Source of the DNA: a virus
Taxonomy: Duplodnaviria; Caudoviricetes
Virus record (IMG/VR): IMGVR_UViG_3300033074_001674
Location: 101,894-165,893 of that record
Strand: one strand, 5' to 3'
DNA length: 64,000 bases
Under the pieces are notes generated by a model. The model had not been told where the DNA came from, did not search any database, and was given only the letters and a program-made list of their open reading frames with translations. Within the stretch, counting starts at the first letter, position 1. The number at the start of each line of letters is the position of its first letter. The translations under genes were made by a program, and so were the position numbers. Positions 40,094 through 57,908 of this stretch are shown here, one piece after another.

Positions 40094-40647
40094 TATATAC
40101 TGATAACCTCCCACCTAACTCTGCCAGCCTGAACGGCGTCCCTTATAATGCGCTCCCTCGTTGTAAGCTTGGCATGTTCTCCTGTTTTAACCTCTAAGAA
40201 TATTACTTCCTTGACCTCCCCGGCGTCAAGCCCATCAAACACAATATAATCTATTGGCGTTCCTATAAATCTGCACTCCTTACCATTATACTTAAACTTC
40301 TCCATCAATGGTAGGAGATGCTCGCTTACTTTACCCTTTACGACATTTGTGGACCGCTTTAACGCATCTTCTCGTATTTTTTTCTCTTCTCTAGACTTCC
40401 AGCTATCAAATCTTATGGCGGCCAAAGCGTCAGCCTTTGTGGCCATATTGTTGTGAACATCAGCTATCTGAGAATTCAACGATTGAACCTGCTTTACGAA
40501 CGAATCCCGTTCTTTTTGGAGCTTAGCCACAATATCATTGTGCTTTGAGACACTTAAGTACGATGTGGCCTTTTCCTTGTACATGTGGACATTAAGCCAG
40601 CATGAGAGCGCAAGTGCCGCGCTCATAAGTAATAATACTAACCACAT
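40093..40647 (-). CDS. Membrane-anchored Holliday-junction-resolvase-like endonuclease (Endonuc_Holl type)
   Basis: N-terminal TM, coiled coil, GKVSEHL.P, RFIGTPIDYIVFDG, FLEVKTG. Confidence 0.8.
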   Translation of the reverse strand: MWLVLLLMSAALALSCWLNVHMYKEKATSYLSVSKHNDIVAKLQKERDSFVKQVQSLNSQIADVHNNMATKADALAAIRFDSWKSREEKKIREDALKRSTNVVKGKVSEHLLPLMEKFKYNGKECRFIGTPIDYIVFDGLDAGEVKEVIFLEVKTGEHAKLTTRERIIRDAVQAGRVRWEVISI

Positions 40648-43600
40648 TTGCTATGTCCGCAATCAACGCATGTCATACAACCTTCTTTCCATGCCAAGTT
40701 AGACGAATTACAAGTAGGGCATGTTGCCGAGGACCTAATCTTCCCCTCCCTTATATATTTTTTAAGGGCCCTTGATAAAACCCTATTTAAATCAACAGAT
40801 GTTCCATCCTTGTTTAATTGTTCGACCAAAAAATCAATCGGAACACCATGTCTCAAAGATGTTGAAATCAAACGAGTTGCCCAGCCAAATTCTGGAGGAG
40901 CAATGTTTTTAATTGTGCCACCTTCTGTAACCAAAGAGTATTTTCCTCGCGCACTCTTTACTAGTATGCCACTGGAAATATTATGTTTTATGCTCCCATC
41001 ATCTAGGATGGCAAACATTTCGTAGGGCTCATTATCCAGTAGACCGACAGCGGCAAGCCACTTCTTTCCTTTATAGGAAAGCCAGTGTAATTCACAGGGA
41101 AGTTCCTTGGGGCGCTTTGGAGCTTCTTGCCGCTTTACCTTTGTTGGTCTGTTTGAAGAATCTGTTACAAGGACGCCGCTTCTTGAACCATCAACATAAA
41201 CAGTGACCCCCTTCAAGCCATTCTTCCACGCATCCATATAAATGCCACCGACAACATCTGGAGATGTTCCCTTGGGCAGGTTAATAGTGCTGCTAATCGC
41301 GTGGTCAATATACTTCTGTATGACTCCCTGTAACTTTACTCTATAGCGCCAATCTATTTCATCAGAGGACACAAAGTAGTCGGGGATGGCATCTGACCCG
41401 CTGTTCAACCCAAACTCCTCTTCCCAATTAATCAGGTTAGAGTGCTTCACATCAAATTCCATCCAGGCATCACCTAGTTCATCTATAAAATCAGTGCGGA
41501 AGTTTAAATCTCCTGGGTTACCCTTGCGACGTCGCTTATATTTTACGCGCCAGACAGGCTCAATGCCACTGCTTGTGTTATGGCGCTTATATTTGCCTAC
41601 CTTACTCATCATCGATACTGTGCCTGTTGGCGCGTTTGTTAATAGGGCTATATTTCTCCTGCCATACTTGGACATATCTTCTTTAATATGGTCTGGCAGT
41701 TCCTTAATAAACTCATTGTCCTTTTCTGCCTCCCAATCAAATCCAACAAACGGTCCACGCTCTTTGGCCAGATTAACGCTCTCAGCGTATGCTTTATCAC
41801 GCAGCACCATGTATACTAAATCGCAGAACCTCAGAGCTTCGTCGCTATCATAGCGCAATTTAAGCATTGCTAGGGTATCTGCTAAAGCATGCGTTCCAAG
41901 CCCGACTCTTCTGCCTTTTCTGCCAGTATCCTGTAGCTTTTTCCATAAAGACTTCTCCGCATCATCCTCGCATCTTTCAAGTATTTTGTCAATTAGTTCT
42001 ATCTCAATATCCACAAGATTATCAGACATACGAACAGCAGTCGCTATATCTTCACGGAAAAGGCCCAAATCAAAATATGGTCCCTGCCCAAATGGATGGC
42101 GGACATAGCCAGTTAAATTGAGACTAATAAGACGACAGCTATCATTAGGACAAAGCGGGATTTCAGAATTGCCAGAAATTATACCGTTAGCAGTGAATTT
42201 ATGGTATCCCTCTACTTCTATACATCCCACTTCTTGTTGCTCATCAAGTCTATCTATAGAGACAATTTTTGTATATCCTTTAGATAACTCAATTCCAGTT
42301 GAACTTTCTAAGGCATTTTTAAGCTTCAAATGCTTAACATTAGAAATAAAACCAATGTTTTCATAGAACTTCTTAAGATTGGAGATTCCACTAATAGTTA
42401 TTCTGTAACAATCTTTCGTTTTATACGACAATCCATCAAATGTAGAATTTCCTGCGCTTCTCATTAGTCCCAAAGAACTTTTAATGCCGAATAAAGTAAG
42501 CAAATTTTTAACCTGTAGTAAGCGCTCTCTATCTATAGATGATAGAGATATACTCCATCTGCTCTGCTTTGGAGCATAAGCAACAGAGCCGTCAGCGGAA
42601 AAATAAGCACTCAAGTAGCCAGAAACAAAATCTCTAGATGCAGAATATAAAAATGGATTATGTCCAACCTTGAATTTCCACACATTAAAATTATACTTCT
42701 CCATTAAATCTTTAACAATAGGAGATGACATAAGTCTAAGTACCATGTTATTCTTTATTTGATTTTTAACAAGAGATATATCATAGCCCAAATTGTTCAT
42801 AATCTTGTGCAATTTCTCAGCCACATCATATTCTTTTTCCCAAAATGACAAATACATTGTTGGAATTGATTCATCTGAGTTCCTAAATGATAGACAACCG
42901 TCTCCGGTTAGCCATCCCAATATAAGTCCTTCGCTCATTGAGCCATTGCTCGGCCAATTAATATCTGGCGCTTCTACGCTTACAGATATTTTATCACCGA
43001 CTCTTAAATCTTTAGTTTCAATTAGACATCTTCTATCATAAACAAGCTTTGTGCCCTGTCTAGAGTAGGATATTTTTTCAAATTTGTGATTGTCTGTTAC
43101 ATCAAAACTTTCTCCGTTTGAAAACGAAATTCTAAATACATCATGTTTTCCGGCATTAAAAAAACCACTAGTTTTGGCCCAACATTGGTCGGAATCTATC
43201 CAAATCTCATCGGATGATGAAATTGATTTAATTTCCTTAAGCCCATCTCTTGTTAAGACCATTACGGTATTTTTGGTGCTAAAACAGCAAGGATTTGTTG
43301 AGACAGCATGAAATGCGGGATATGCAAAGGTTGGCGTGTACTTTAATAGCTTATCCCAAAAAACTATTCCAGGCTCAGCCATAGCAGTGGCGCATTCTAT
43401 TATTGTATTCCAAACTTGTTTAGCTGGAACCATCCGACTGAACTTTACATCCCCTTGAAGGGGCCATCTTTGCTCGTATAATGTGTCGTTTTCTACAGCA
43501 ATCATGAATGCATCAGATATTCTTATAGATACATTTGCTCCAGTGACCTTAGTAAGATTCTTTTTCATTGTAGCAAATTTTTCAACATCAGGATGATGAA

Positions 43601-44156
43601 TATCTAATGTCAACATTAACGCACCGCGTCGCCCCGACTGTCCTACCATCCTAGTGATAAAAGAATAAAGGTCTGCAAATGACCATGCACCGCTAGTAGT
43701 TCTTGCAGCGTTATTTACAGGCATCCCATCCGGCCTTAAAGTACTGATGTCAATCCCGACCCCACATCTTCTTTTGTAAAGCTGTGCCAGTTCAGTACTT
43801 GTGTGCATAATCCCGCCAATAGAATCTGTCGGGCTCTCAATTACGACACAATTAGATGCGCTCATTACTTGGAAAGGATTGCCAATGGCGGACATGGGAC
43901 TGCCTTGGGGAACGATGCGTGCAAACTTATCAAGCGCGTCCCTGTAGCGAGCATAAGTATCTTGTATTCCATACTTTTCCTTATCTATCCTGGCAAATTC
44001 CCTTGCAAGCCTATCATGCATATCATGAGGGGTCTTTTCGTGCAAATTTCCATCTTTGTCTTTGAGAGCATATTTATTTAAAAAAGTGGTTGCTACCAAT
44101 TCATCGCCGCTAAAATAATCTAGAGATGCAGATAGAGCTTCCTTATAGGGATACAT
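40638..44156 (-). CDS. nrdJ: Class II (B12-dependent) ribonucleotide reductase with intein
   Basis: SNC, RRGALM, TNPC/SEIPL, C.L.SLNL, APTGT, KGVTVY motifs, C-terminal TSCPD-like and Zn-ribbon; no beta subunit adjacent. Confidence 0.9.
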   Translation of the reverse strand: MYPYKEALSASLDYFSGDELVATTFLNKYALKDKDGNLHEKTPHDMHDRLAREFARIDKEKYGIQDTYARYRDALDKFARIVPQGSPMSAIGNPFQVMSASNCVVIESPTDSIGGIMHTSTELAQLYKRRCGVGIDISTLRPDGMPVNNAARTTSGAWSFADLYSFITRMVGQSGRRGALMLTLDIHHPDVEKFATMKKNLTKVTGANVSIRISDAFMIAVENDTLYEQRWPLQGDVKFSRMVPAKQVWNTIIECATAMAEPGIVFWDKLLKYTPTFAYPAFHAVSTNPCCFSTKNTVMVLTRDGLKEIKSISSSDEIWIDSDQCWAKTSGFFNAGKHDVFRISFSNGESFDVTDNHKFEKISYSRQGTKLVYDRRCLIETKDLRVGDKISVSVEAPDINWPSNGSMSEGLILGWLTGDGCLSFRNSDESIPTMYLSFWEKEYDVAEKLHKIMNNLGYDISLVKNQIKNNMVLRLMSSPIVKDLMEKYNFNVWKFKVGHNPFLYSASRDFVSGYLSAYFSADGSVAYAPKQSRWSISLSSIDRERLLQVKNLLTLFGIKSSLGLMRSAGNSTFDGLSYKTKDCYRITISGISNLKKFYENIGFISNVKHLKLKNALESSTGIELSKGYTKIVSIDRLDEQQEVGCIEVEGYHKFTANGIISGNSEIPLCPNDSCRLISLNLTGYVRHPFGQGPYFDLGLFREDIATAVRMSDNLVDIEIELIDKILERCEDDAEKSLWKKLQDTGRKGRRVGLGTHALADTLAMLKLRYDSDEALRFCDLVYMVLRDKAYAESVNLAKERGPFVGFDWEAEKDNEFIKELPDHIKEDMSKYGRRNIALLTNAPTGTVSMMSKVGKYKRHNTSSGIEPVWRVKYKRRRKGNPGDLNFRTDFIDELGDAWMEFDVKHSNLINWEEEFGLNSGSDAIPDYFVSSDEIDWRYRVKLQGVIQKYIDHAISSTINLPKGTSPDVVGGIYMDAWKNGLKGVTVYVDGSRSGVLVTDSSNRPTKVKRQEAPKRPKELPCELHWLSYKGKKWLAAVGLLDNEPYEMFAILDDGSIKHNISSGILVKSARGKYSLVTEGGTIKNIAPPEFGWATRLISTSLRHGVPIDFLVEQLNKDGTSVDLNRVLSRALKKYIREGKIRSSATCPTCNSSNLAWKEGCMTCVDCGHSKCG
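42168..43286 (-). mobile_element. 373-aa intein with LAGLIDADG homing endonuclease in nrdJ
   Basis: TNPC|CFSTKNT...VTDNHKF...LGWLTGDG...AYFSADGS...HKFTANGIISGN|SEIPL; removal restores NPCSEIPL. Confidence 0.92.
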
Positions 44157-46494: not shown

Positions 46495-46841
46495 AATGGT
46501 ATCTCTTTCTTCTCTCCTAATTAATACCCCGGCTCAGGCGGCGCCTGCCTTAAAACCGGAAGGTGAAAAAGATGTGGTGAGGAAGGAGGGCAGGAAGAGT
46601 GGGTGTGGGTTGTTGGGCGGCGGTTTTGGTTGAACCGTGCCGAAGGCACGAGTTAGATGATGGCTACCCCCGGCCCCGATGCGATTCTCCTCACTGAAAT
46701 GAAATGAAAAAGACCCCCCGGGGAGAGGAGTGTTGCCATTCGGCGCCACTAGGTGCGCGGTTCTGTCGCTGAGCGCGAACGCTCACCCCACTGGCGCCAA
46801 TCGGCGACGCCACGGCGCGTCAAGTCCAGCAATCCCAATAG

Positions 46842-46857
46842 CGGCATGCAGCATGCT
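46842..46857 (+). promoter_or_regulatory. Sigma54-type -24/-12 promoter P0
   Basis: CGGCAT-GCAGC-ATGCT (GG-N10-GC). Confidence 0.6.
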
Positions 46858-47170: not shown

Positions 47171-47251
47171 CCCCCGGGGCGCTTGCCCCGGGGGAGCTAT
47201 CAAGCTAAGCTATACAGCAAGCCGATAAGTAAGTAACGGGAGGATACAATG
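47171..47251 (+). repeat. Hairpin plus sigma70-like promoter/leader, copy 1 (copy 2 at 50295-50370)
   Basis: CCCCGGG..CCCGGGG hairpin, TTGCCC-N17-TAAGCT, ATACAGCAAG.CGATAAG, GGAGGATAC. Confidence 0.75.
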
Positions 47252-47886: not shown

Positions 47887-47902
47887 GGATTGGGGTCCCG
47901 GG

Positions 47903-47966
47903 GTTCAGCCCCAGGGTCCCGGCCCGTCCGCGCTCCGCGCGGCGCCCCAGGGCGTTGGGGTAGAAC
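47903..47966. repeat. GTTC...GAAC structured repeat E1 (64 bp)
   Basis: Aligns with E2-E8; central hairpin CCGCGC-TCC-GCGCGG. Confidence 0.85.
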
Positions 47967-48047
47967 GAGTTACGAGGAGCGAGACAAAAGCGCTCGCCTC
48001 ATGGCGCCAGATGGACACACGCCCGCTGCGCGGGCTGGGGTTATGAC

Positions 48048-48063
48048 GGGCACGGCTCCTGCT
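48048..48063 (+). promoter_or_regulatory. Sigma54-type promoter P1
   Basis: GGGCAC-GGCTC-CTGCT. Confidence 0.7.
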
Positions 48064-48079
48064 ATGGGTAGAGTGGAGG

Positions 48080-48322
48080 ATGAACATGGAACGTTGCGAT
48101 GTGTGTCAGATGGAGTTCCCTTCGTCTCAACCGCAGCCCGCCGTGGCCGATGCGCCTCTCGGCGGGGGCATGTGGGGCTATCTCTGTGAGTCGCATCTGG
48201 GTCACGCGCGCGGCCCGATGACCAAGCTCGTGCAAGAGTTGGCCTGGCAAGAGTTTACGACCAAGCTCGACAGGGTGCTCATAACTCCCTGCGATTGCGG
48301 GACTTGCGAGGATTGCTCGTAA
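48080..48322 (+). CDS. Small Cys/His-rich protein
   Basis: GGAGG RBS; CDVC, DA..GG.WGYLC..H, CDCGTC. Confidence 0.75.
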   Translation: MNMERCDVCQMEFPSSQPQPAVADAPLGGGMWGYLCESHLGHARGPMTKLVQELAWQEFTTKLDRVLITPCDCGTCEDCS

Positions 48323-48340
48323 GTCATTGGCCGGTGGGCG

Positions 48341-48404
48341 GTTCAAGCTCACCGGCCCGGGCGCGCCGCCAAAGCGCGGCGAGGCCCGGCCGTTCCGGCT
48401 GAAC
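48341..48404. repeat. Structured repeat E2 (64 bp)
   Basis: GTTCAAG...CGCCGC-CAAAGC-GCGGCG...CTGAAC. Confidence 0.85.
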
Positions 48405-48525
48405 GGTCGCCCCGGCGCCCGCCAAACATTTCAGATGCGTCGCACAATCGCCTCGCTGGGTCCCATTTGACACGCAATCAGCCGGGGTAGCACGAGAATC
48501 ATTGGAGTTACGTCGCCAGACCCAT

Positions 48526-48541
48526 TGGCAGCCAGCTTGCT
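48526..48541 (+). promoter_or_regulatory. Sigma54-type promoter P2
   Basis: TGGCAG-CCAGC-TTGCT. Confidence 0.7.
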
Positions 48542-49129
48542 CTATGGTCTATCGTCCGCGCGGCCGAGTGAAGCGAGTAGAGACAAGCTCTCTCCGCTCA
48601 ACGCCCGCGCGCTACAGCCAGCGGTATCCGCAAACCGGCTGGTGGCGGCATTTGACAATTTGCCCCGGCGGGATTGGGAGCGCTCCCAATCTCTGGACAC
48701 TCCGCGCGAGCTGAGCATCTCCCCCGGTTTCTGACGCAAGTTAGCCTCACGTGAGCCGTTGCGACCTCCAAAGGGTCCCGACGTAACTTTGTGGGTCAGA
48801 ACAGAAGCCAAAGGTGTGCGCTCATGGTAACGCGCGCAGGAAATAAGCTCGCCAATATGCGCAGAGAATGCCGCGACGGCGGTAGCAGAGCGCAGCGGGC
48901 GATTCCTAGTCTTGCACGGCGTATACTTGTATGCCACCGACAAGCGGGACCCTGTTTCACGTCCTGGGCGTGCCGGCGCTGGCGCCATGTAGCAGCAAGC
49001 AACGCGTAATCGCGAGCGCGAAGCTTGTGGGCAGCAAGTAGTCTCGGGTCGCAAGGAACCCCGGTATCTTGAGCGGTTCGAGCCCGCAATGGCGCAACGT
49101 GTCCTCCCACTGGGGCCTGGGTTCGAGCG

Positions 49130-49193
49130 GTTCGAGCCCAGCGCCCCGGGCCAGCCGCGCTCCGCGCGGCGCCCGCGGGAGATGGGGTGGAAC
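49130..49193. repeat. Structured repeat E3 (64 bp)
   Basis: GTTCGAG...GCCGCGC-TCC-GCGCGGC...GGAAC. Confidence 0.85.
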
Positions 49194-49256
49194 GTTTCAT
49201 ATGCGCGTCACGAAACCTATCTGCGCCACATTCAACGGAGATTGCTCGAGATATGA

Positions 49257-49272
49257 TGGCACGGAGGGTGCA
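49257..49272 (+). promoter_or_regulatory. Sigma54-type promoter P3
   Basis: TGGCAC-GGAGG-GTGCA. Confidence 0.7.
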
Positions 49273-49305
49273 TTGGGTGGGGAGCGCGAAACGCGCGGAG
49301 GAAAC

Positions 49306-49692
49306 ATGAGCCGTCTTTACCTTCTCAACGCATTCTCCCTCAACATGCTCTCGTTCGACGAAGAACAAGAGCTCATCCCGCCCATGCGGGTGGTCGTCAA
49401 CCCGATGTCGCCGAAGGATGCGGCGCGGGTGGTCCAGGAAGCGTACAACAACATCCTGGCGCCCGGCTTCCCGCGGGGGCTCAACCTGCACGCCCACATC
49501 GGCCACGAGAGCACGGCCGCGCTACTGAGCAAGATGCTCAACATCCCTCTCCACGCCGACCGCGCCACCGTGACGATGCTACCGGGTGACATCGCCGTCG
49601 TCGCCCAGTACGTCGGCCCGCGTCTCCCCGAGGGTGCCACGTCGCTCCCCGAGGGTGCCACCATCCGCTTCTACCTCGTGGAAGTGGAGTAG
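49306..49692 (+). CDS. acrIII-1: DUF1874 (STIV B116/YddF) family protein; AcrIII-1-type cA4 ring nuclease
   Basis: YLLNAFSLNML, IGHESTA, DRATV.M.PGD, RLPEG family motifs; GGAGG RBS. Confidence 0.82.
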   Translation: MSRLYLLNAFSLNMLSFDEEQELIPPMRVVVNPMSPKDAARVVQEAYNNILAPGFPRGLNLHAHIGHESTAALLSKMLNIPLHADRATVTMLPGDIAVVAQYVGPRLPEGATSLPEGATIRFYLVEVE

Positions 49693-49712
49693 CCAGCCAG
49701 GGATTCCTGGGG

Positions 49713-49776
49713 GTTCAACCCCAGGGTCCCGGGCGCGCCGCCAAAGCGCGGCGAGGCCTGGAGGCTTGGCCTGAAC
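49713..49776. repeat. Structured repeat E4 (64 bp)
   Basis: 31-nt identity with the E2 core; left arm shared with E1. Confidence 0.85.
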
Positions 49777-49870
49777 GTCCTGGAGCGCGGGTGCAACATT
49801 TCTACTGCATGAGGCGTTTCATTGGGACCCATCCGCGCTGGGTAGCACGGAGAGCGCTAGAGTTACGTCG

Positions 49871-49886
49871 TGGCATCGGTATTGCT
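49871..49886 (+). promoter_or_regulatory. Sigma54-type promoter P4
   Basis: TGGCAT-CGGTA-TTGCT. Confidence 0.75.
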
Positions 49887-49907
49887 CTAGAGTGTCGCGG
49901 AGGAAAC

Positions 49908-50285
49908 ATGATGGAAAACACTGCAACGGGACCGTGCGAACGGTGCGAAAATAACTCGGCAGACTCTCGTGGATACGCCGGGCGCTTGTGCTGGGATTGC
50001 TCTGTCGAGTACGTGCTCGACAATCCTGGCCCGGAAGAGTGTGAAGAGCTTCTCGTGGCGATGCGCGACATCGCCGGAGATTGCTCTGTGGACGGGTGCA
50101 AGAACCCGGCTTTGCCCGAGGATTGCTCCGCGTACTGCGCGCTGCACAGAATCGAAGTATGCGGCGACGGAGATTTCCCGACGTGTGCGTGCGATGACGC
50201 AATCCGCGCCATCCGCTTCGTCCGAAACATCGTGCGGCCCGAACTTTTCTGGCCGTCCCTCGGTGGACCGCGGCGCGAAGAATAG
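49908..50285 (+). CDS. Cys-rich acidic protein
   Basis: GGAGG RBS; CERC, CWDC, CSVDGC, YCALH. Confidence 0.75.
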   Translation: MMENTATGPCERCENNSADSRGYAGRLCWDCSVEYVLDNPGPEECEELLVAMRDIAGDCSVDGCKNPALPEDCSAYCALHRIEVCGDGDFPTCACDDAIRAIRFVRNIVRPELFWPSLGGPRREE

Positions 50286-50294
50286 CCTTCCCCG

Positions 50295-50370
50295 CCCCCG
50301 GGCGCTTGCCCCGGGGGCGCTATCAAGTTAAGCTATACAGCAAGACGATAAGACAACGGAGGATACCATG
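50295..50370 (+). repeat. Hairpin plus sigma70-like promoter/leader, copy 2
   Basis: Near-copy of 47171-47251; TTGCCC(50306)-N17-TAAGCT(50329). Confidence 0.75.
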
Positions 50371-50586
50371 AACGCGCACGAGAGTCTCATTCTGTCCGTC
50401 CGTCGCCTGCGTGCGCTCCTCGCGAAGGAGCGCGGGGTCGACGAGGAGAGCCAGGGCGCTTACGACGCCCTGGAGCGCGCCCTGCGGGGCGAGCAGCCCC
50501 TGGGCTCCACGCTCGCCCACCTGGCAAGTCGGGCTTGCTTGGCAGGTGACCTGGCTCACGCCGCGCACCAGGAGGTGCGCTCGTGA
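50368..50586 (+). CDS. Hypothetical protein (72 aa)
   Basis: GGAGGATACC-ATG. Confidence 0.7.
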   Translation: MNAHESLILSVRRLRALLAKERGVDEESQGAYDALERALRGEQPLGSTLAHLASRACLAGDLAHAAHQEVRS

Positions 50587-50627
50587 GCCGAATGCGCCGC
50601 TATAGCTAGCAAGATGGGCCCTGGGCG

Positions 50628-50690
50628 GTTCAAGCTCACCGGCCCGGCCGCGCGCGGGACGCGCAAGAGGCCTGGACGTTGGGCTGGAAC
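50628..50690. repeat. Structured repeat E5 (63 bp)
   Basis: Left arm identical to E2, right arm identical to E6. Confidence 0.85.
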
Positions 50691-50747
50691 GAGACGGAGC
50701 GTGGCGCCAAATGGACACACCTGCCACGGATGCGCCACGGGTTAGGC

Positions 50748-50763
50748 TGGTATGGTGCGTGCT
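50748..50763 (+). promoter_or_regulatory. Sigma54-type promoter P5
   Basis: TGGTAT-GGTGC-GTGCT. Confidence 0.65.
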
Positions 50764-50788
50764 ATATAGAAGATTGGAGGGTCAAGCG

Positions 50789-51298
50789 ATGAACGAGAAC
50801 AAAGCAAAAGCATCAGAAGAGCGAGAGCTTGCGAGGCTTGGAGCCTCCCTTCGGGACCTGAGGCAAACCCTGGCGGCGGTCGACCTGCGCATCAATCAGC
50901 CGATGTCCACACTGCCAGAGGAGTACTTCCGCTCCGTCGGCGAGGTCTACTTCGAGCTAAAGCAGACCGAACGCAGGCTAATGGACCTGCGCGCAAAGGT
51001 CAACGGGCGCTGTCTCCGCGCATGGAAGGCCAAAGAGGAGAGGCTCAACTCCATCACGTCAATCAGGCAGCTAACCCACACCGAGCTAGGGAAGCTGCTG
51101 CGTACGCGCGAGCGAGGGTGGAGCGGCGACCGCCTCCGCATCGCCAACAAGCTCATGGGCTACCCGGCCAAGAGCTGGAGCACCGTTCTGGCCGAGGCCA
51201 GGACGTTGGCTCTGGCCGAGCTTAACCGACGACGGCAGGCCGCAGACCGCCGCCGCATCGGCTGCTGCGACGACCCTGGGCATTGCTGGCCTTACTAG
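50789..51298 (+). CDS. Hypothetical coiled-coil protein
   Basis: GGAGG RBS before ATG 50789. Confidence 0.7.
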   Translation: MNENKAKASEERELARLGASLRDLRQTLAAVDLRINQPMSTLPEEYFRSVGEVYFELKQTERRLMDLRAKVNGRCLRAWKAKEERLNSITSIRQLTHTELGKLLRTRERGWSGDRLRIANKLMGYPAKSWSTVLAEARTLALAELNRRRQAADRRRIGCCDDPGHCWPY

Positions 51299-51319
51299 GT
51301 CAGTAGCCGCGGGCCTTGG

Positions 51320-51382
51320 GTTCAACCCTAGGGCCCCGGCCCGCCCGCAAAGAACGGGCGCCCGCGGACGTTGGGCTGGAAC
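51320..51382. repeat. Structured repeat E6 (63 bp)
   Basis: GTTCAA...GCCCG-CAAAGAA-CGGGC...GGAAC. Confidence 0.85.
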
Positions 51383-51485
51383 GCGCCGGGATGCGTGTCA
51401 GATACGCCTCGAGGCGCAGGCGGGGAGTGTGTCCAAACGGCGCCGCCCGTACGTCTCACGGACGGAGATTGCTAGGCTTACGCTT

Positions 51486-51501
51486 CGGTCCGGCCCCTGC
51501 T
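51486..51501 (+). promoter_or_regulatory. Sigma54-type promoter P6
   Basis: CGGTCC-GGCCC-CTGCT-ATAGAG. Confidence 0.55.
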
Positions 51502-51870
51502 ATAGAGTAACCTGCCGACGGCGGGCGACAACAGCCGACGCGACCCGACGACACCGGGCGGTCTTTTACAACTCGAGCCTATCTGTAAGTACCGTTTCCG
51601 CGTCCTGTTTCCCGGTCTCGCCGTACCTAAACGGTTTGGGGAAACGCTCGGAGTAGACGGTCCGCGCGGGACTTACAGGGATGGTCTGATGGTGCGTATC
51701 CGCTACTGCGCGCTATCTTCCTATAGGCAAAAGGTTTGAGACGTGAGAGGCAATGAGTCTCCGGTAGCGGGGAGACAATCTGCCTGGGGAGAAAATCTGC
51801 CCATATGCCAGCTATATGGCGGTGGGCTAACAAGTTAGCGGCAATACCGCCGCAGAAAGGAGGTTCTGGC

Positions 51871-52164
51871 ATGAGGTTGGAGCATCTGGTGAAGATGGTG
51901 AGGGTCCTGGATAACTCGCACCGGCAGGCGCAGCGGGCCAGGGACAACGCGATGGAGCGCACCCAGCAGCTACCTGCGGCGCAGGCCTGGCTCCTCAGGA
52001 TGGCCGCCGAGGAGGAGCCCGACGACCGCCTGGAGCGGGCCGCGGCGGAGTACATCAAGCTGGTCAGGGGGGTCCGCTCGGCAAGGGAAGCCCAGGCGCG
52101 GAACGAGCGCAACGCGCTCGACGCCGCCGAGCGCCTGAAGTACGAACTGAGACTGGAGGACTAG
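51871..52164 (+). CDS. Hypothetical helical protein
   Basis: AAGGAGG RBS before ATG 51871. Confidence 0.75.
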   Translation: MRLEHLVKMVRVLDNSHRQAQRARDNAMERTQQLPAAQAWLLRMAAEEEPDDRLERAAAEYIKLVRGVRSAREAQARNERNALDAAERLKYELRLED

Positions 52165-52265
52165 CATCTCCCGGGGCGGAGCGCATTAGTGTCCCGCCCC
52201 GTACCAAACTTGTCCCATACGGGACGTATTTGACCGCATATCGACGGAGTTTGCTGGCGTTGTGC

Positions 52266-52281
52266 TGGCATGTCTCCTGCT
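52266..52281 (+). promoter_or_regulatory. Sigma54-type promoter P7
   Basis: TGGCAT-GTCTC-CTGCT. Confidence 0.7.
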
Positions 52282-52349
52282 ATACTGTGGAATGTCGGGC
52301 ACGGGCGCACCGACACCACATAACCTCTTGCGCCCATTGGAGTTTCACA

Positions 52350-52931
52350 ATGGCGATGTTCACGAGCGAGGTCCTGGCCAAGCTGCACGCCCTGGCCGCT
52401 CCCGCGGCGCGGGCGAAGGTGGAGGCTCTGGCCGACATCCACGAGGTGGCCGTCGAGACGGCCGTGAAGGAGTACGAGGGACTGCGGGCCAAGCACGAGG
52501 CTGCGGCCCTGGTGAAGGCCCTGAACGAGGCCAACGCGGTGGCGTTCCCCGCCAACAGCGACCAGGCCCGGGCGCTGCAGGGCGGCGCGGTGGGGCGCGT
52601 CGTCCTGGGTGAGGACGGCTCGGTGCGCATCACCTGGACCCTGATGGGGGCCCTGGGGTCGGGCACCGGCGCGAGCACGGGCCGTGGAAAGCGGGGCCGT
52701 GGTGGCCGGAAGTTCAAGTACTTCCACGACGGCCAGGCCCTCCCCCGCGGCTCCTCGGTGAAGGGGTTCCTCATGGAGCACTACCCCGACTCCGAGGCCG
52801 CCAGGACCATCCGGGAGTACAAGGCCAGCGAGGAGGCCGGGCTCTCCAGCGCCAAGATTGGCGCGTGGGAGGCCATCCTGAAGGACGAGGTGGTGAAGGC
52901 CCACTTCACTCGGGAGCAGGTGAACATCTAG
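52350..52931 (+). CDS. Hypothetical protein, paralogue of 56235-56864 (possible DNA-binding)
   Basis: GGAG RBS; extreme G/C third-position bias; shared F.YFH.G and K(I/L)GAW.AI motifs. Confidence 0.8.
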   Translation: MAMFTSEVLAKLHALAAPAARAKVEALADIHEVAVETAVKEYEGLRAKHEAAALVKALNEANAVAFPANSDQARALQGGAVGRVVLGEDGSVRITWTLMGALGSGTGASTGRGKRGRGGRKFKYFHDGQALPRGSSVKGFLMEHYPDSEAARTIREYKASEEAGLSSAKIGAWEAILKDEVVKAHFTREQVNI

Positions 52932-53019
52932 CCCGCTCCTCGGTCGGCGCCCGGGGGAGGATGGTCCTCCCCCGGGCCGGCTTCCTAAACTATCCAAGGG
53001 GGATGGTGAAGGATAGCAG

Positions 53020-53382
53020 ATGTCGTTCGTAGTTGAGGGATTCTTGCGTTCTGGTGGCAAAATAACACGACTAGTTGACACCCGCCTTGAGGCGGAACGC
53101 GAGTTCCACGACCTCAAGTCGCTTTGCGCAGATGTCCAGGTGATAGGCGCCGAGGGCATTATCGCGCAGTGGAGCGAGAAAGTGGACAGGCGCGAGGAGG
53201 CAGAGAAACTAATCAGGCTCCTGGCATCGGCCGGGACGGCCTGGGAATGGAATAGGGCCCGTGCGTTTGGCCAGAAGGTCGGCGCACCTGACCCAGGAGC
53301 GTGGTCAAAGCCCGCAGGTGTGCTGCGGGTGCTCCAGTGGGCCCTGGAACGTGGTGTGTGGAAAGGAATGGCAAGCGCGTGA
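53020..53382 (+). CDS. Hypothetical protein
   Basis: 120 aa; AAGGA RBS. Confidence 0.65.
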   Translation: MSFVVEGFLRSGGKITRLVDTRLEAEREFHDLKSLCADVQVIGAEGIIAQWSEKVDRREEAEKLIRLLASAGTAWEWNRARAFGQKVGAPDPGAWSKPAGVLRVLQWALERGVWKGMASA

Positions 53383-53804
53383 GCGCCAGGGCTTTTCAGA
53401 TGGACATGTCCACCGGGAACTCCCGGATGGACCGGATGAACTCCCGACAGGTCGGGAGGCTCCACAAGTGGAACGGTAAGGAGGCGCGGGTCAAGTCCAG
53501 CCAGACGACCCGCAAGCGGGTCGGAGTCAAGCTCGACCGGCGGCGGCTCAAGGAGCTCCTGGCCGAGGAGCCTCTGGTGGGGGCGATGAGCCTGGAAGAG
53601 GAGAACTCGCTCAGGAGCGACCTCCACATGCCCCGCCTCATGACCGAGGAGGAGCGGCTGGAGGAGGCGCGCTACGCCTTCCTGGCCTGGCAGAAGCAGT
53701 ACTGCGAGGACGAAGAGGAACGCACGTATCTGCAGTTCCTGGAGCGTCTGGACAGGACTCTCCTGAAGTACGACGAGCGGGAACTGGCCAACATCATCGA
53801 CTAG
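53379..53804 (+). CDS. Hypothetical protein
   Basis: GTGA overlap with upstream stop; GC3-biased codons. Confidence 0.65.
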   Translation: MSARAFQMDMSTGNSRMDRMNSRQVGRLHKWNGKEARVKSSQTTRKRVGVKLDRRRLKELLAEEPLVGAMSLEEENSLRSDLHMPRLMTEEERLEEARYAFLAWQKQYCEDEEERTYLQFLERLDRTLLKYDERELANIID

Positions 53805-53828
53805 GCCGGTTGTCGTTCAGGGCGCCTG

Positions 53829-53891
53829 GTTCAAGCCAGGCGCCCCCGCCCGGCCGCAAAGCCGGCCGAGGCCTGGAAGATGGGCATGAAC
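53829..53891. repeat. Structured repeat E7 (63 bp)
   Basis: GTTCAAG...CGGCCG-CAAAGC-CGGCCG...TGAAC. Confidence 0.85.
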
Positions 53892-53974
53892 CCTCCTTGA
53901 AACGTATCCCATATCTCTGGGGCCCACTGTGTCCAATTGGCGACACGCACCATTGTAGTGTAAGAAGTTACGCG

Positions 53975-53990
53975 CGGCACGTCGCTTGCT
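53975..53990 (+). promoter_or_regulatory. Sigma54-type promoter P8
   Basis: CGGCAC-GTCGC-TTGCT. Confidence 0.75.
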
Positions 53991-54014
53991 CCCGGTATTA
54001 TGGTGGAGGATTCT

Positions 54015-54176
54015 GTGGTAAATGTCCTGAGCATTAACGGCGTTCTTGTCCAGGTCTCGGATAAGCTGGATGAGAAGTATCCAGAGGACAGGGCCATCAT
54101 CAATCACATCAAGGAAGCCCTTGAGCACGGCGCCAAGGAAGGACGCTATGCGGGGGTCTACTGGGGATTGCTGTAA
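54015..54176 (+). CDS. 53-aa hypothetical protein (not in ORF track)
   Basis: GGAGG then GTG; MVNVLSINGVLVQVSDKLDEKYPEDR...YWGLL. Confidence 0.7.
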   Translation: MVNVLSINGVLVQVSDKLDEKYPEDRAIINHIKEALEHGAKEGRYAGVYWGLL

Positions 54177-54186
54177 TGGAGGACCA

Positions 54187-54441
54187 GTGGCGCGTATCAT
54201 AATCGATGTGCCTGACAACGTAGACGGGGACGACCTTCAAATCGTCATCTGTGGAGCGTTGGCAGAGTACCAGTACAGCCGGTTTCCATCTCCTGAAATC
54301 TATGTCAGGGAGAGGTACAGGAATCTGAAGTCCACTAGCCCAGAGTTCTTGCGCAAGGTGGCGCAGGTCGAGCGCTATCTTAACATCGCGCAAACGGTCC
54401 GCGATGCAATGGCAAAGGACAATTTTCTGGTGGAGGAGTAG
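54187..54441 (+). CDS. Hypothetical protein
   Basis: GGAGG then GTG 54187. Confidence 0.7.
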   Translation: MARIIIDVPDNVDGDDLQIVICGALAEYQYSRFPSPEIYVRERYRNLKSTSPEFLRKVAQVERYLNIAQTVRDAMAKDNFLVEE

Positions 54442-54445
54442 GGCG

Positions 54446-54661
54446 ATGACGCAGCGCGTCACACGTGTGGTGGCCACATTCCCATCTAGCAAGGTGGAAC
54501 GTCTGGTGGAAGGACATCCATCAGCAGTAGGAACAAAGGGAAGATGGGCCAGAGAAGCCCGACTCCTGGCTAAGGAAGGGGCCCTGGATGTGATTGTCAC
54601 ATCCCCGGCCGGCAAGGTCATCTACTGGTGGCATTCGCGCCACGGAAGGATTGACAAATGA
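54446..54661 (+). CDS. Hypothetical protein
   Basis: GGAG RBS; operon packing. Confidence 0.65.
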   Translation: MTQRVTRVVATFPSSKVERLVEGHPSAVGTKGRWAREARLLAKEGALDVIVTSPAGKVIYWWHSRHGRIDK

Positions 54662-54906
54662 GTTGTTACTATCACGGCTCTGTGTGTGATGGTTCCAGAT
54701 GTCCTCCAGATGAGCCTACATACAGAAAGCCTCAGTACGGTTCATTCGTAATCGATGTGCAGGACCACATGTTCTGCACTGGCATAACGTTCTTCACGGC
54801 CACAGGGCGGCAAATCTTCTACTGTGAGGTTGGCTGCGACTCGGATGTGTCGCAGGTGGTGGAGGCGTTCTTCAACGGCATGGAAATCGGATGGTATGCC
54901 AAATGA
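54658..54906 (+). CDS. Hypothetical protein
   Basis: ATGA coupling on both sides. Confidence 0.65.
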   Translation: MSCYYHGSVCDGSRCPPDEPTYRKPQYGSFVIDVQDHMFCTGITFFTATGRQIFYCEVGCDSDVSQVVEAFFNGMEIGWYAK

Positions 54907-55178
54907 GCGTTGATAGGACTGCCTTGGCGGCGGACCTCATGTTCAACTCGCACGGCGAGGCATATCGCGATGTCCAGGAGGCCAAATCAATCCTCCTGAC
55001 TCGCTGGGTCCCAAAGGGGCCGTTCAACCTCAGTCAGGTATATGCCATGGAGCCTATCCCTGACATTTCTCTCTATCTGGCCGTCGTAGAACTGCTAGAG
55101 GAGAAGGTCATCAAGGGAATCCATCCCTACGACCATAGGGTCCGTCGCCACGACCAGATGGCATATGAGGCAGTCTGA
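54903..55178 (+). CDS. Hypothetical protein
   Basis: ATGA and TGATG coupling. Confidence 0.65.
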   Translation: MSVDRTALAADLMFNSHGEAYRDVQEAKSILLTRWVPKGPFNLSQVYAMEPIPDISLYLAVVELLEEKVIKGIHPYDHRVRRHDQMAYEAV

Positions 55179-55558
55179 TGGACAGGGAAATTCGGTCAGC
55201 GACGACGTATGAGCAGTACTGGCGCGCCATGCTGCGCGCCGGCCAAATTCAAGGACTTTGTGCGCCCGTCACTAACAAGGTAAAGGCGCTAAAGCGTAGC
55301 ATGATGACCCTAATTCAGGGCGCCGCGCGCGAGAATCCAGAAATGCTCAGTGCAACTCATAAGGATAGCATTAGGAATCTAAACATCTACTGGTGGCGCA
55401 ATCAGCCAGAAGATTGGACCTACGGAGACTTCGAGGTCCTGAATTGGCAGATGAGTGAGGAATTCGATACTGGATATTACTACATCGCCAACTGTGCAAT
55501 GTGGTGCGTTCCTGAATCAGCATGGGAAGCTTGGGGGATTAGGGTAGACGATAGATAG
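55178..55558 (+). CDS. Hypothetical Trp-rich protein
   Basis: TGATG coupling; 126 aa. Confidence 0.65.
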   Translation: MDREIRSATTYEQYWRAMLRAGQIQGLCAPVTNKVKALKRSMMTLIQGAARENPEMLSATHKDSIRNLNIYWWRNQPEDWTYGDFEVLNWQMSEEFDTGYYYIANCAMWCVPESAWEAWGIRVDDR

Positions 55559-55565
55559 GTGTACA

Positions 55566-55802
55566 ATGGACTCTATAATTCAGAGAGCCAAAAGAGATGG
55601 AAATTTCTCTAGGATGGCCATAGAAATAAGAAGGGCAGGAGAAATGACCATCTATGTAATATGTTGGAAGGGAACCGAGCGTTGCTCAAGTTACGAACTA
55701 GTAGAAAACACATGTTTCGACTCCTATGAGTCAGCAGCTAAATATCAATCAGAACATTACTCAATAGGACAAACACATATCCGACCATTGAAAATGAATT
55801 AG
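55566..55802 (+). CDS. Hypothetical protein
   Basis: AGGTG RBS; ends 8 bp before E8. Confidence 0.55.
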   Translation: MDSIIQRAKRDGNFSRMAIEIRRAGEMTIYVICWKGTERCSSYELVENTCFDSYESAAKYQSEHYSIGQTHIRPLKMN

Positions 55803-55809
55803 GAGAGGT

Positions 55810-55873
55810 GTTCAAGCTCAGGGCCCCGGCCCGCACCGCAAAGCCGGTGCGCCCAAGGCAGATGGGCCTGAAC
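55810..55873. repeat. Structured repeat E8 (64 bp)
   Basis: GTTCAAG...GCACCG-CAAAGC-CGGTGC...CTGAAC. Confidence 0.85.
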
Positions 55874-56010
55874 TGTCCTGGACGGAGCTCCTATATTCAG
55901 GAGCGGTTACGATTGTATGACCTATGCAACTTTTTTATTGCAGGTGCAGTGGCTTGGTGGCAGTAGAATGGTGTGCCCTATGGATTGGGTTCAATTGTGG
56001 TGCGTTGCGT

Positions 56011-56135
56011 TTCGTCTCATGAGACGTATCCCCACCGTGGTCATTGGAGTAGGAGCGATGCTGGGGTCCCGGTTCGTTTCACCCGGCGTAACCCTCGGCC
56101 CCACAAAGCTTTAGACCATTGGCACCGGGACTGCT
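56011..56135 (+). promoter_or_regulatory. Conserved upstream element plus sigma54-type promoter P9 (homologous to 60311-60436)
   Basis: CGTCTCATGAGACG palindrome, GGAGTAGGAGCGA, GTAACC, then TGGCAC-CGGGA-CTGCT at 56120. Confidence 0.7.
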
Positions 56136-56234
56136 CTATGGTGAGGTGCGCGTGACCGTCCCGAAGGTCGGGATTAGTAACGCGGTCCTTTCACCCCGTG
56201 TTTTACCTGCCCTTTTGGGCACAGGAGTTTTATC

Positions 56235-56864
56235 ATGTTCCCTACCGATGTGTTGGCGTCCTTCCACAAGCGTGAGATGGAGGAGGCCCTGGAGAAGGTC
56301 ACGCAGTACTGCAACCTGATGGACAAGGACCCCGACGAGGGCAGGGCGGAGTACAAGAAGCTCCGCGCCAACTTCGAGGCCGCGGAGGCCAAGAAGCGCC
56401 TGGCCGAGCGCCTGCGGGTGCTGTCCAAGGCCATCAACGGGGCCGTCATCCTGCTCGCGCAGGAGAACGGCGGCGACGTGGAGGCGGCCCTCATCGAGTA
56501 CATCAAGAGCGAGGGCGTCCTGACCCTCGAGGTCGTCCAGGACGAGGACGAGGGCACGCAGTTCGTCATCCGGTCCAAGGCGCACTTGGCCAAGGACGCG
56601 GTGGCCACCTCGAGCCAGGCCAACCGCTCGACCCGCGAGGGCCGCCGGTCGTCCTTCCGGTACTTCCACCGGGGGGAGGCCATCAACGGGGCCCTGGCCA
56701 AGTTCCTCCGCGACAACTACCCGACCTCCAGGGCAGTCGAGCGCCTGGACGAGGTGGATGCCAAGTACAACGCGGGCGAGAGCAAGAGCAAGCTCGGCGC
56801 CTGGCAGGCCATCATCGCCGACCGGGACCTGGCCGACCTGTTCGACCGTGAGGAGGTGGCCTAG
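56235..56864 (+). CDS. Hypothetical protein, paralogue of 52350-52931
   Basis: AGGAG RBS; GC3-biased; aligns end to end with its paralogue. Confidence 0.8.
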   Translation: MFPTDVLASFHKREMEEALEKVTQYCNLMDKDPDEGRAEYKKLRANFEAAEAKKRLAERLRVLSKAINGAVILLAQENGGDVEAALIEYIKSEGVLTLEVVQDEDEGTQFVIRSKAHLAKDAVATSSQANRSTREGRRSSFRYFHRGEAINGALAKFLRDNYPTSRAVERLDEVDAKYNAGESKSKLGAWQAIIADRDLADLFDREEVA

Positions 56865-56886
56865 CCACAACTAGGGCGTCCGCCCG

Positions 56887-56952
56887 TAGGACCAGGCAGT
56901 ACAGGACTGCCCCTTTCCAGAGGTGACGAGGTTCAACTCCTCGCTGGTCCTA
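56887..56952 (+). ncRNA. Miniature tRNA-like RNA 1
   Basis: TAGGACCAG/CTGGTCCTA acceptor, CAGT-ACAGG-ACTG D-arm, shrunken anticodon arm, CGAGG-TTCAACT-CCTCG T-arm. Confidence 0.65.
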
Positions 56953-56997
56953 TTCCGTTAGGCCCACTTTGGACCTGACCTAGATAGTGAGGAATCC

Positions 56998-57225
56998 ATG
57001 CCCCGAGTCGTCTGTCCAATCTCCAAGGCCACCTTCCTCGAGGCCGCGACCTCGATGGAGTCGTCCTTCGACGGAAGTCCTGACCACATCCAGATGAATC
57101 CCATCCAGTACGGCACTGGGTCCTTGGGATGGCAGGGCCAGGGGACCGTCGAGGTCATCGTGGCCGGAATCCCGGTCCAGTGCATCGCCCACCTGAAGCT
57201 CGTGGTCAAGGGGTCCAAGGGCTAG
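56998..57225 (+). CDS. Small conserved protein (CP.S...F...A / GTGSLGW / V.GSK family)
   Basis: GAGG RBS; motif pattern recalled from small Planctomycetota proteins. Confidence 0.7.
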   Translation: MPRVVCPISKATFLEAATSMESSFDGSPDHIQMNPIQYGTGSLGWQGQGTVEVIVAGIPVQCIAHLKLVVKGSKG

Positions 57226-57264
57226 GAGAAGAGGGTCAGGGGATGCCCTATAAATCCCCAACAT

Positions 57265-57337
57265 GGGCCTGTAGCTCAATTGGTAGAGCATCCGCCTTTT
57301 AAGCGGGGGGTTCCGGGTTCGAGTCCCGGCAGGCCTA
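57265..57337 (+). tRNA. tRNA-Lys(TTT)
   Basis: GGGCCTG/CAGGCCT acceptor, AGCTCAATTGGTAGAGC D-arm, CTTTTAA loop, GGTTCGAGTCC T-arm. Confidence 0.93.
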
Positions 57338-57356
57338 TCCCATCTAACCAGGTCTA

Positions 57357-57653
57357 ATGACCAAGGAGAAGTCCGTGGCCATCGTACAGTGCATCAACTG
57401 CAAGAACTGGACCAATCAGGTCAAGAAGGTGTCCAGAGGCGGCGCCTGCGAGGAGACGCCGCACTGCAAGGCCTCCTGGCGCGAGCACCTCCGTCTCCTC
57501 AAGGAGGAGGCCAGGGCCTTCGCCGAGGTCAAGCGGCGAAGGAAGCAGGAGAAGAACGCGCGCAACAAGGCCAATAGGGCCGCGAGGGCCAAGGCCAACC
57601 AGGACGTGGCCTCTGGCGCCAACTTGAAGAACACCTACAAGATGGGCAAGTAG
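57357..57653 (+). CDS. Basic Zn-finger-like protein
   Basis: CINC...C.....HC plus Lys/Arg-rich tail; GC3-biased. Confidence 0.7.
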   Translation: MTKEKSVAIVQCINCKNWTNQVKKVSRGGACEETPHCKASWREHLRLLKEEARAFAEVKRRRKQEKNARNKANRAARAKANQDVASGANLKNTYKMGK

Positions 57654-57676
57654 CGCCCATACCGCCTTCGACAATT

Positions 57677-57719
57677 AGGCCCCGCTCAGGCGATGACCTG
57701 GGCGGGGTCTTTTTGTTTT
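57677..57719 (+). terminator. Intrinsic terminator ending the GC-rich block
   Basis: AGGCCCCGCTCAGG-CGATGA-CCTGGGCGGGGTCT-TTTTGTTTT. Confidence 0.88.
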
Positions 57720-57740
57720 AACGCATTCAGGGCGCAATCC

Positions 57741-57908
57741 GTTCAAGCCCACAGGCCCGGGCCGCTCCTGGATTGATTGGCGTTAAAGGACTTATGGCGC
57801 GCAACTTTGGTAAACCCCCCGGGTTTTTGGGTATGCCCTGATTCGTTCAATCTCAACGCCCCTTAACGAACTATAAGGACTTATGGCGGGCCTGGAAAGA
57901 TGTTGAAT
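57741..57908. repeat. Two degenerate copies of the E repeat
   Basis: GTTCAAGCCCACAGGCCCGGGCC at 57741; GTTCAA(57845)...GGCCTGGAAAGATGTTGAAT(57908) keeps the 64-bp span. Confidence 0.6.

Follow-up and report, generated by a model that had tools for sequence, protein, structure and literature searches.

What kind of element is repeated, in one orientation and at a nearly fixed length, along a GC-rich region of an otherwise AT-rich phage genome? The repeat in question begins with GTTC, ends with GAAC and lies in a 64,000-nucleotide stretch of DNA (hereafter the window), positions 101,894 to 165,893 of the Caudoviricetes record IMGVR_UViG_3300033074_001674; the record is a single viral contig of 165,893 bp, and the window is its final 64 kb. 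An initial annotation, made without database searches, had listed eight clear copies of the repeat and had offered three explanations for it, namely an RNA 3′-processing or stability motif, a single-stranded DNA (ssDNA) or cruciform recombination site, and a protein site with distant half-sites. Our analysis suggests that the repeat is probably the stem-loop half of a GC-rich, mobile regulatory cassette that carries a sigma54-type promoter and resembles the PeSL elements of T4-type phages.

Repeats of fixed length and the cassettes they head

A regular-expression search for GC-rich GTTC-N55/56-GAAC over the whole 165,893-bp genome finds exactly the eight copies listed in the initial annotation (here c1 to c8) and no others, all of them inside a 12-kb island. 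A strict consensus pattern likewise gives 8 matches, all on the + strand, and 0 in 100 shuffles. In the window and nine related contigs taken together, the core is 63 or 64 nucleotides (nt) long in 25 of 25 copies and both GTTC and GAAC are unchanged in all of them, so that the invariant span despite sequence drift, noted at the outset, holds beyond this genome. We refer to the ~10-16 nt just 5′ of GTTC as U, to positions 0-19 of the core as L, to its centre as C and to its last 19 nt as R. With U included, c1 lies at 47893-47966 (U 47893-47902, 64-nt core 47903-47966), c2 at 48329-48404 (U 48329-48340, 64-nt core; its 5′ arm is the same as in c5 and its centre the same as in c4), c3 at 49112-49193 (64-nt core; U holds a tandem duplicate of GGTTCGAGC, and the covariance model (CM) score is the lowest, 50 bits), c4 at 49700-49776 (64-nt core), c5 at 50616-50690 (63-nt core), c6 at 51308-51382 (63-nt core) and c7 at 53820-53891 (63-nt core), whereas c8, at 55810-55873, is a 64-nt core without a matching U. 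Seven copies shortly follow a stop codon, at 16 nt (c1), 18 nt (c2), 20 nt (c4), 41 nt (c5), 21 nt (c6), 24 nt (c7) and 7 nt (c8), very nearly as first described; c3 has no upstream open reading frame (ORF) and is preceded by ~600 nt without a convincing one. Two degenerate copies had also been proposed. One of them persists as a 5′ fragment at 57741-57765 on the + strand, which comprises the first 25 positions only (nhmmer E=0.08), stands just after a U-tract terminator and recurs in the related contigs L015, L016 and L017. The other, at 57845, was not detected by the nhmmer profile, which found no further full copy in the genome.

The Rfam search recommended in the initial annotation returned three tRNAs at gathering thresholds and no family that matches the repeats, and at E values up to 5 nothing overlaps them except a 16-nt, 17-bit fragment. 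The recommended metagenome search succeeded in part: relatives with the repeat were found in Logan contigs, and none in IMG/VR or the JGI metagenomes, from both of which the strict consensus pattern is absent. A looser pattern has 15 single matches in IMG/VR, about the chance expectation, and nhmmer accepts none of them as the element; searching IMG/VR with proteins of the island and its neighbourhood gave no relatives either. Among 185,579 GTDB bacterial and archaeal species genomes, there was one non-palindromic chance match in a deltaproteobacterial coding region and otherwise none. The covariance model R1 found nothing in five distant terminase relatives.

Every copy is followed, 57-246 nt downstream, by a sigma54-type −24/−12 box, then by a Shine-Dalgarno sequence and then by a small gene. 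By pattern match, boxes were located on the + strand at 48049-48063 after c1 (81-nt spacer), 48527-48541 after c2 (121 nt), 49258-49272 after c3 (63 nt), 49872-49886 after c4 (94 nt), 50749-50763 after c5 (57 nt), 53976-53990 after c7 (83 nt) and 56121-56135 after c8 (246 nt); a weaker box after c6, GGTCC-N-CTGCT at 51487-51502 on the same strand (104-nt spacer), was recognized by eye and is below the score cut-off. The window holds 17 matches to GGYA-N7-TGCW, against 9.3 expected, and 10 of them are on the + strand between 46,843 and 60,436, each preceding a gene. The same order of element, box and Shine-Dalgarno sequence is found in a new cassette on a related contig (L018:4693). It is also evident that the repeat is not needed for a box, since none precedes the boxes at 46843, 52267 and 60422. 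Sigma54 itself had no match among the phage genes, and a search for sigma54 activator domains gave one generic AAA+ match only, over the family cut-off at 25.7 bits when frame neighbours are counted.

Between repeat and box, TGGCGCCA-type palindromes recur, often beside TGGACAC(AC), which occurs in either orientation; examples are at 48000-48012, 50702-50720 and 51435-51455, and another at 46760-46830. These spacer palindromes are candidate activator sites, and better candidates for enhancers than the repeat is. The word GATTGCT, where it occurs in spacers, is part of ACGGAGATTGCT, which lies 5′ of some promoter boxes; it recurs many times between 48290 and 50130 and elsewhere, and within reading frames it encodes the Asp-Cys-Ser of Cys-rich small proteins.

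The cargo genes are ORFans, with a STIV_B116-like protein as the sole Pfam match. Two of them, 52350-52931 (193 aa) and 56235-56864 (209 aa), are paralogous and sit in separate cassettes, and a third paralogue, which has diverged further, occurs in L018 (3370-3939). Between c2 and c3, the cassette at 48405-49129 has the sigma54-type box at 48527, no convincing ORF and three GGTTCGAGC motifs in its 3′ part; it could carry a non-coding RNA or be a decayed cassette. It is missing from L016, L022 and L023 and present, in altered form, in the sequencing runs X3 and X4.

Hairpins at the joint between cassettes

The first of two hairpins, H1, spans the joint between one cassette and the next: U pairs with L positions 6-17 through 10-15 pairs, and the loop of 5-7 nt contains TTCA. 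H1 is found in 7 of the 8 window copies, with 10 perfect pairs in c7 and GTTCRA in or next to the loop, which bears out the upstream hairpin that the initial annotation had described for most copies. The remaining copy, c8, has no H1 in this genome; in L015 and L017, where it follows another gene, a matching U is present and H1 with it. Because the stems are not in the same register in all copies, methods based on alignment columns (RNAalifold on a MAFFT alignment and pair counts on the CM alignment) are blurred; H1 and the rod fold described below were therefore compared energetically copy by copy. Cognate U-L combinations have a mean energy of −22.9 kcal/mol, versus −17.0 kcal/mol for all other U-L combinations, a difference that none of 20,000 permutations reaches (p<5e-5). 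The U of c5 folds at −24.9 kcal/mol with the L arm of L016:8971 and at −17.2 kcal/mol with its present neighbour, which identifies c5 as a recombinant joint.

H1 is also biased towards one strand. Its stability on the + strand equals or exceeds that on the − strand in 21 of 21 copies tested, and by manual count its stems hold at least 12 G:T wobbles and one A:C. Comparison of orthologues shows a C to T change that turns a C:A mismatch into U-A (L022:778), a G to A change that turns G:U into A-U (L016:7140), a C to U change that yields G:U (L020:2488) and an extra G that lengthens the stem (L016:11493); all the H1 substitutions between orthologues maintain or improve + strand pairing. The cognate fit, the strand bias and these substitutions together point to a hairpin in a single-stranded + strand nucleic acid, for which the sense transcript of the upstream gene is the simplest candidate. 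The proposal of an RNA 3′-processing or stability motif thus gains indirect support, from the + strand G:U wobbles and from the covariation of a hairpin just after the stop codon.

The second hairpin, H2, is a perfect stem of 5-8 bp in C, mostly around a CAAAG loop. Perfect pairing is kept through seven distinct stem sequences, which bears out the compensatory central stem reported initially. An apparent sigma54 box on the minus strand inside H2 was rejected, its spacing being 2 nt too short. R is conserved in sequence, GG-N2-G-N-T-N2-G-N3-GAAC, and has no consistent pairing partner. As had been observed, no U-tract follows the repeats: the sequence that follows H1, H2 and GAAC is rich in G and C, and the terminator scan of the + strand finds a single canonical hairpin-plus-U-tract terminator in the island, at its right edge (57677-57720). 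An intrinsic (rho-independent) terminator was accordingly set aside for the repeat, whose hairpins have no directly following U-tract.

When the cores are folded alone, all eight form the same rod closed by GUUC:GAAC, at −28 to −45 kcal/mol. This is the GTTC-GAAC alternative fold or switch of the initial annotation, and it can form but does not covary: a copy's own L with C and R gives −34.0 kcal/mol and a foreign L −34.6 kcal/mol (p=0.75). The − strand folds equally well, and with the U flank included the minimum-energy fold is H1 plus H2 in most copies. As GTTC and GAAC are invariant, this comparison bears on the rest of the rod.

A second class of repeat was noticed at 47172-47229 and 50295-50352. 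Its two copies share 93% identity and consist of a GC hairpin, CCCCGGGGC-GCTT-GCCCCGGGG, followed by GCTATCAAGYTAAGCTATACAGCAAG and a Shine-Dalgarno sequence, and they sit between genes that apparently share one promoter.

Cassette shuffling and the phage genome

Relatives were obtained as Logan contigs from other samples, reached via protein clusters. All of them have the repeat, and their gene order differs, with five or more contigs showing another arrangement of the cassettes. The gene at 50789-51298 lies between c5 and c6 here, and directly after the gene 48080-48322 in L016, L022 and L023, which come from three samples; its cassette is found three cassettes further on in this genome. L015 and L017 lack the gene 55566-55802, their junction falling 5 nt before c8, and a contig of run X4 joins 50283 to 55805. 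Three-way comparison places the switches of parent inside the element or at its border, at −4 to +19 relative to the G of GTTC for c2/c5 and at −2 to +8 for c6/c4. Joints at the L/C or C/R border occur in L018:2324, and in L017 the head and promoter of c4 are fused at the Shine-Dalgarno site to another gene. When the segments are tabulated, C, R and the downstream spacer always derive from one parent, the upstream flank and U from another, and L goes with either. These results indicate that the 64-nt core is the head of the downstream cassette and that U is the tail of the upstream one. Natural recombinants of this kind show that the repeats do the same evolutionary job as PeSL, the shuffling of cassettes.

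The phage has a RecA/UvsX-family gene (E=1e-41), and its closed 165.9-kb genome has no match to a tyrosine recombinase (PF00589), a serine recombinase or a Y1 HUH transposase (PF01797). Hybrid joints were not seen in the Logan contigs of runs X1 and X2. At 1.3-1.5× genome depth, the 1,401-bp unitig lying between c2 and c4 might point to excised mini-circles with a chimeric repeat, but the depth measured for the shared 31-mer is inconsistent with additional copies. Contig ends near repeats in X3, a run labelled metatranscriptomic that is probably DNA, are what assembly breaks at repeats would give and were left unused.

The island is part of the phage genome. In the independent Logan assemblies X1 and X2, the genome consists of two unitigs (164,550 and 1,401 bp), linked by a 29-31-nt stretch common to c2 and c4, and their lengths sum to that of the contig; the map is thus closed and circular at 165,893 bp, with the island contiguous with the phage. 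The CheckV completeness estimate of 74% is probably too low, given this closed map. The island is not an assembly chimera either, since it recurs at the same position in a related 131-kb contig from a different sample. GC content is ~40% in the genome and 58-65% in the window between 46,000 and 58,000 (~63% for the 12-kb island), so that the composition of the island differs from the rest by more than 20 percentage points. Its edges are marked by U-tract terminators, on the minus strand at 46713-46731 and on the plus strand at 57677-57720, and it is filled by small ORFans. A megablast search of the island against 50,697 phage records and a tblastn search with one island protein gave no match.

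Elsewhere, the phage encodes a terminase, a portal, a major head protein and a ribonucleotide reductase, and the nearest terminases of cultured phages share only 27% identity with its own. Precomputed Pfam matches on the L016 orthologue indicate that the large subunit of the reductase (40638-44156, − strand, 1172 aa) contains an intein that includes a LAGLIDADG endonuclease. Within the island, a tRNA-like cloverleaf at 56886-56952 (+ strand) stands directly 3′ of the gene 56235-56864; the fold combines an acceptor-like stem of 9 bp with two small arms and a T-arm of canonical form, CGAGG-UUCAACU-CCUCG, and the mascRNA model scores it at 29 bits, below gathering (E=2e-4 for the local stretch). 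The succession of this cloverleaf, a gene and tRNA-Lys (57264-57340) suggests tRNA-type punctuation of an operon.

A probable PeSL-like cassette and its alternatives

We consider that a cassette comparable to PeSL, with a sigma54-type promoter, is the probable explanation of these observations. Its order would be the 63/64-nt element, a spacer with TGGCGCCA palindromes, the sigma54-type box, the Shine-Dalgarno sequence, at least one small ORFan, a stop codon and the tail U. Once the upstream gene is transcribed, this tail would pair with positions 6-17 of the next element and form H1, a GC hairpin of 10-11 bp with UUCA in its loop, a few nucleotides after the stop codon. H2 would follow directly. 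In tandem, the two hairpins would most likely end, attenuate or protect from the 3′ side the message of the preceding gene and insulate the promoter that follows; such an RNA role is suggested by their position, by the covariation and by the strand bias. That sigma54 reads the boxes is likewise suggested by their sequence. In the DNA itself, the conserved stretches (GGTTCAA, CCCGG, GMGSCC and the 3′ block) could serve as short tracts of identity, at which homologous recombination, probably by the RecA/UvsX-like protein, would delete, move or swap cassettes.

Several points weigh against this explanation. No hairpin of the repeats has a U-tract after it, and GC hairpins of that kind need not stop transcription, as those at 47172 and 50295 stand between genes that are apparently co-transcribed. 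In the CM alignment, column pair counts give 61% of cells paired, which none of 500 shuffles reaches, yet partners slid by +1 score equally. One crossover tract measures just 11 nt, and the joint L016:8971 is not a simple hybrid of window copies. Furthermore, a plain hairpin or terminator role leaves the invariant GTTC and GAAC, the fixed length of 63/64 nt and the unpaired 3′ block unexplained, and a form recognized by a protein or folded into a pseudoknot may have its place there.

PeSL elements, which consist of a stem-loop, an early promoter and a Shine-Dalgarno sequence before ORFans in hyperplastic regions, are shuffled as modules by recombination between copies; the two papers cited here describe them for T4-type myoviruses only, with sigma70-type early promoters, and reporter assays in phi1/RB49 have demonstrated both a terminator or attenuator activity of the stem-loop and an active promoter (Arbiol et al. 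2010, PMC2839356; Comeau et al. 2014, PMC4122927). The phage studied here similarly has a repeated intergenic GC stem-loop with promoter and Shine-Dalgarno sequence before ORFans (eight cassettes in the window and L018:4693), concentrated in a hyperplastic region, and a RecA/UvsX-type recombinase of its own, and it differs from its relatives (L015, L016, L017, L018, L022 and L023) by indels and by a changed order of the flanked genes, the exchange points lying inside the repeat. The differences are also clear. The box is of the −24/−12 sigma54 type rather than sigma70-type, and a unit of fixed length stands 57-246 nt 5′ of the promoter, whereas the PeSL stem-loop is interleaved with −35 and −10. 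The unit here comprises two covarying hairpins, and the first is divided over two cassettes, with one half in the preceding tail and the other in the following head. The island is GC-rich, whereas the uncultured phage that carries it is AT-rich and apparently not T4-like.

REP/BIME elements are also GC-rich imperfect palindromes just 3′ of genes, co-transcribed with them and thought to protect mRNA from 3′ exonucleases or to attenuate. Membership of that family, which the initial annotation had named as an outcome that would refute its reading, was not found: the present copies are confined to one 12-kb phage island, strictly co-oriented and each tied to a promoter module, and they have no GTAG-type head, no RAYT/Y1 transposase (PF01797) and no true match in bacterial or archaeal genomes.

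The shuffling of cassettes could instead be the work of a dedicated recombination site, at which a protein recognizes a fold of fixed length, as with integron attC, and exchanges strands at GTTCAA in the loop of H1. The attC sites, whose ends read RYYYAAC...GTTRRRY, are likewise imperfect palindromes at cassette boundaries, conserved in fold and size rather than in sequence, with GTT and AAC ends and a varied order of cassettes. The position at cassette ends, the co-orientation, the fixed length and the structure kept despite sequence drift would suit such a site, as would the presence of one cassette in two different slots and several joints that change parent exactly around GGTTCAA. However, the ends here, GTTCRAS...GAAC, face outward in the reverse of the attC arrangement, most of the element moves with the downstream rather than the upstream gene, each cassette has its own promoter, and some breakpoints fall elsewhere, at the borders of C with L and with R or at a Shine-Dalgarno sequence. 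The closed map gave no match to a tyrosine or serine recombinase or to a Y1 HUH transposase, and the repeats were not assigned to attC given these ends and the lack of a PF00589 match. We therefore regard a dedicated site as quite unlikely. The recombination site proposed initially is supported in that breakpoints fall inside the repeat, but crossovers at several conserved blocks and the lack of a site-specific recombinase are better explained by homologous recombination than by an ssDNA or cruciform site. A bolder proposal, which we also hold to be unlikely, makes the joint a purpose-built site of exchange: H1 would be split so that any tail re-forms a hairpin with any head, the GTTCAA loop and 64-nt head would be recognized by a phage or host factor (a structure-specific nuclease or a new recombinase) that starts the exchange, and the island would be an integron-like platform for gene capture built on sigma54-type promoters.

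The fixed length and the inheritance of the core with the downstream spacer and promoter could also reflect a protein site in duplex DNA that belongs to that promoter, such as part of a sigma54-activator enhancer or an architectural or insulator site contacted at GTTC and GAAC. This would account for GTTC, CCCGG, GMGSCC and the 3′ block, which are invariant though unpaired or uninformative about pairing. Nevertheless, such a site is doubtful, given the boxes that have no element upstream, the variable distance to the box (57 to 246 nt), the separate spacer palindromes as better enhancer candidates, and hairpin sequences that vary while pairing is kept with a G:U bias on one strand, which is unexpected for a duplex site; nor did any evidence emerge for the distant half-sites of the initial annotation. 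Another possibility is that the core closed by GUUC:GAAC acts in RNA as a rod, switch or pseudoknot, either as an RNase III-type signal or as a toggle alternating with H1. The early RNase III hairpins of T7 and T3 are comparable, being irregular, ~60 nt long and placed between early genes, and they leave a stabilizing 3′ hairpin on the upstream message. All eight cores form the rod, its closing ends are invariant in 25 copies, and it is the sole fold for c8 in the window. It is improbable, however, as the cognate rod is no more stable than the non-cognate one, folds as well on the − strand and gives way to H1 plus H2 in most copies once U is present, and substitutions in the 3′ block between orthologues are not compensatory; in addition, each unit here has its own promoter, unlike the T7 and T3 hairpins. 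Finally, H1 might mimic the acceptor/T-arm stack of a tRNA and thereby direct cleavage or marking of the mRNA end by RNase P, RNase Z or a factor that binds T-loops. GGTTCRA does lie within or close to the loop of a helix of 10-11 bp, and the same island has a true tRNA-like cloverleaf and tRNA-Lys right after genes. Yet the T-loop likeness noted at the outset fails on register: no copy gives a 7-nt UUCRANN loop closed by G53-C61, UUCA sits at varying offsets in loops of 5-7 nt, and the T-loop register allows at most 2 pairs. Neither tRNA nor tRNA-like Rfam models match the repeats at E values up to 5, and ARAGORN reports only three true tRNAs, which makes this mimicry very improbable.

An evolutionary device like PeSL is thus seen in an unrelated large phage, with another class of promoter and a more elaborate joint of fixed length. 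Sigma54-type promoters are a class rarely thought to be used by phages. If the hairpins end or protect transcripts and sigma54 reads the boxes, each ORFan would be an insulated, activator-dependent and exchangeable unit. The natural recombinants provide ready material on how phages trade accessory genes without breaking their regulation.

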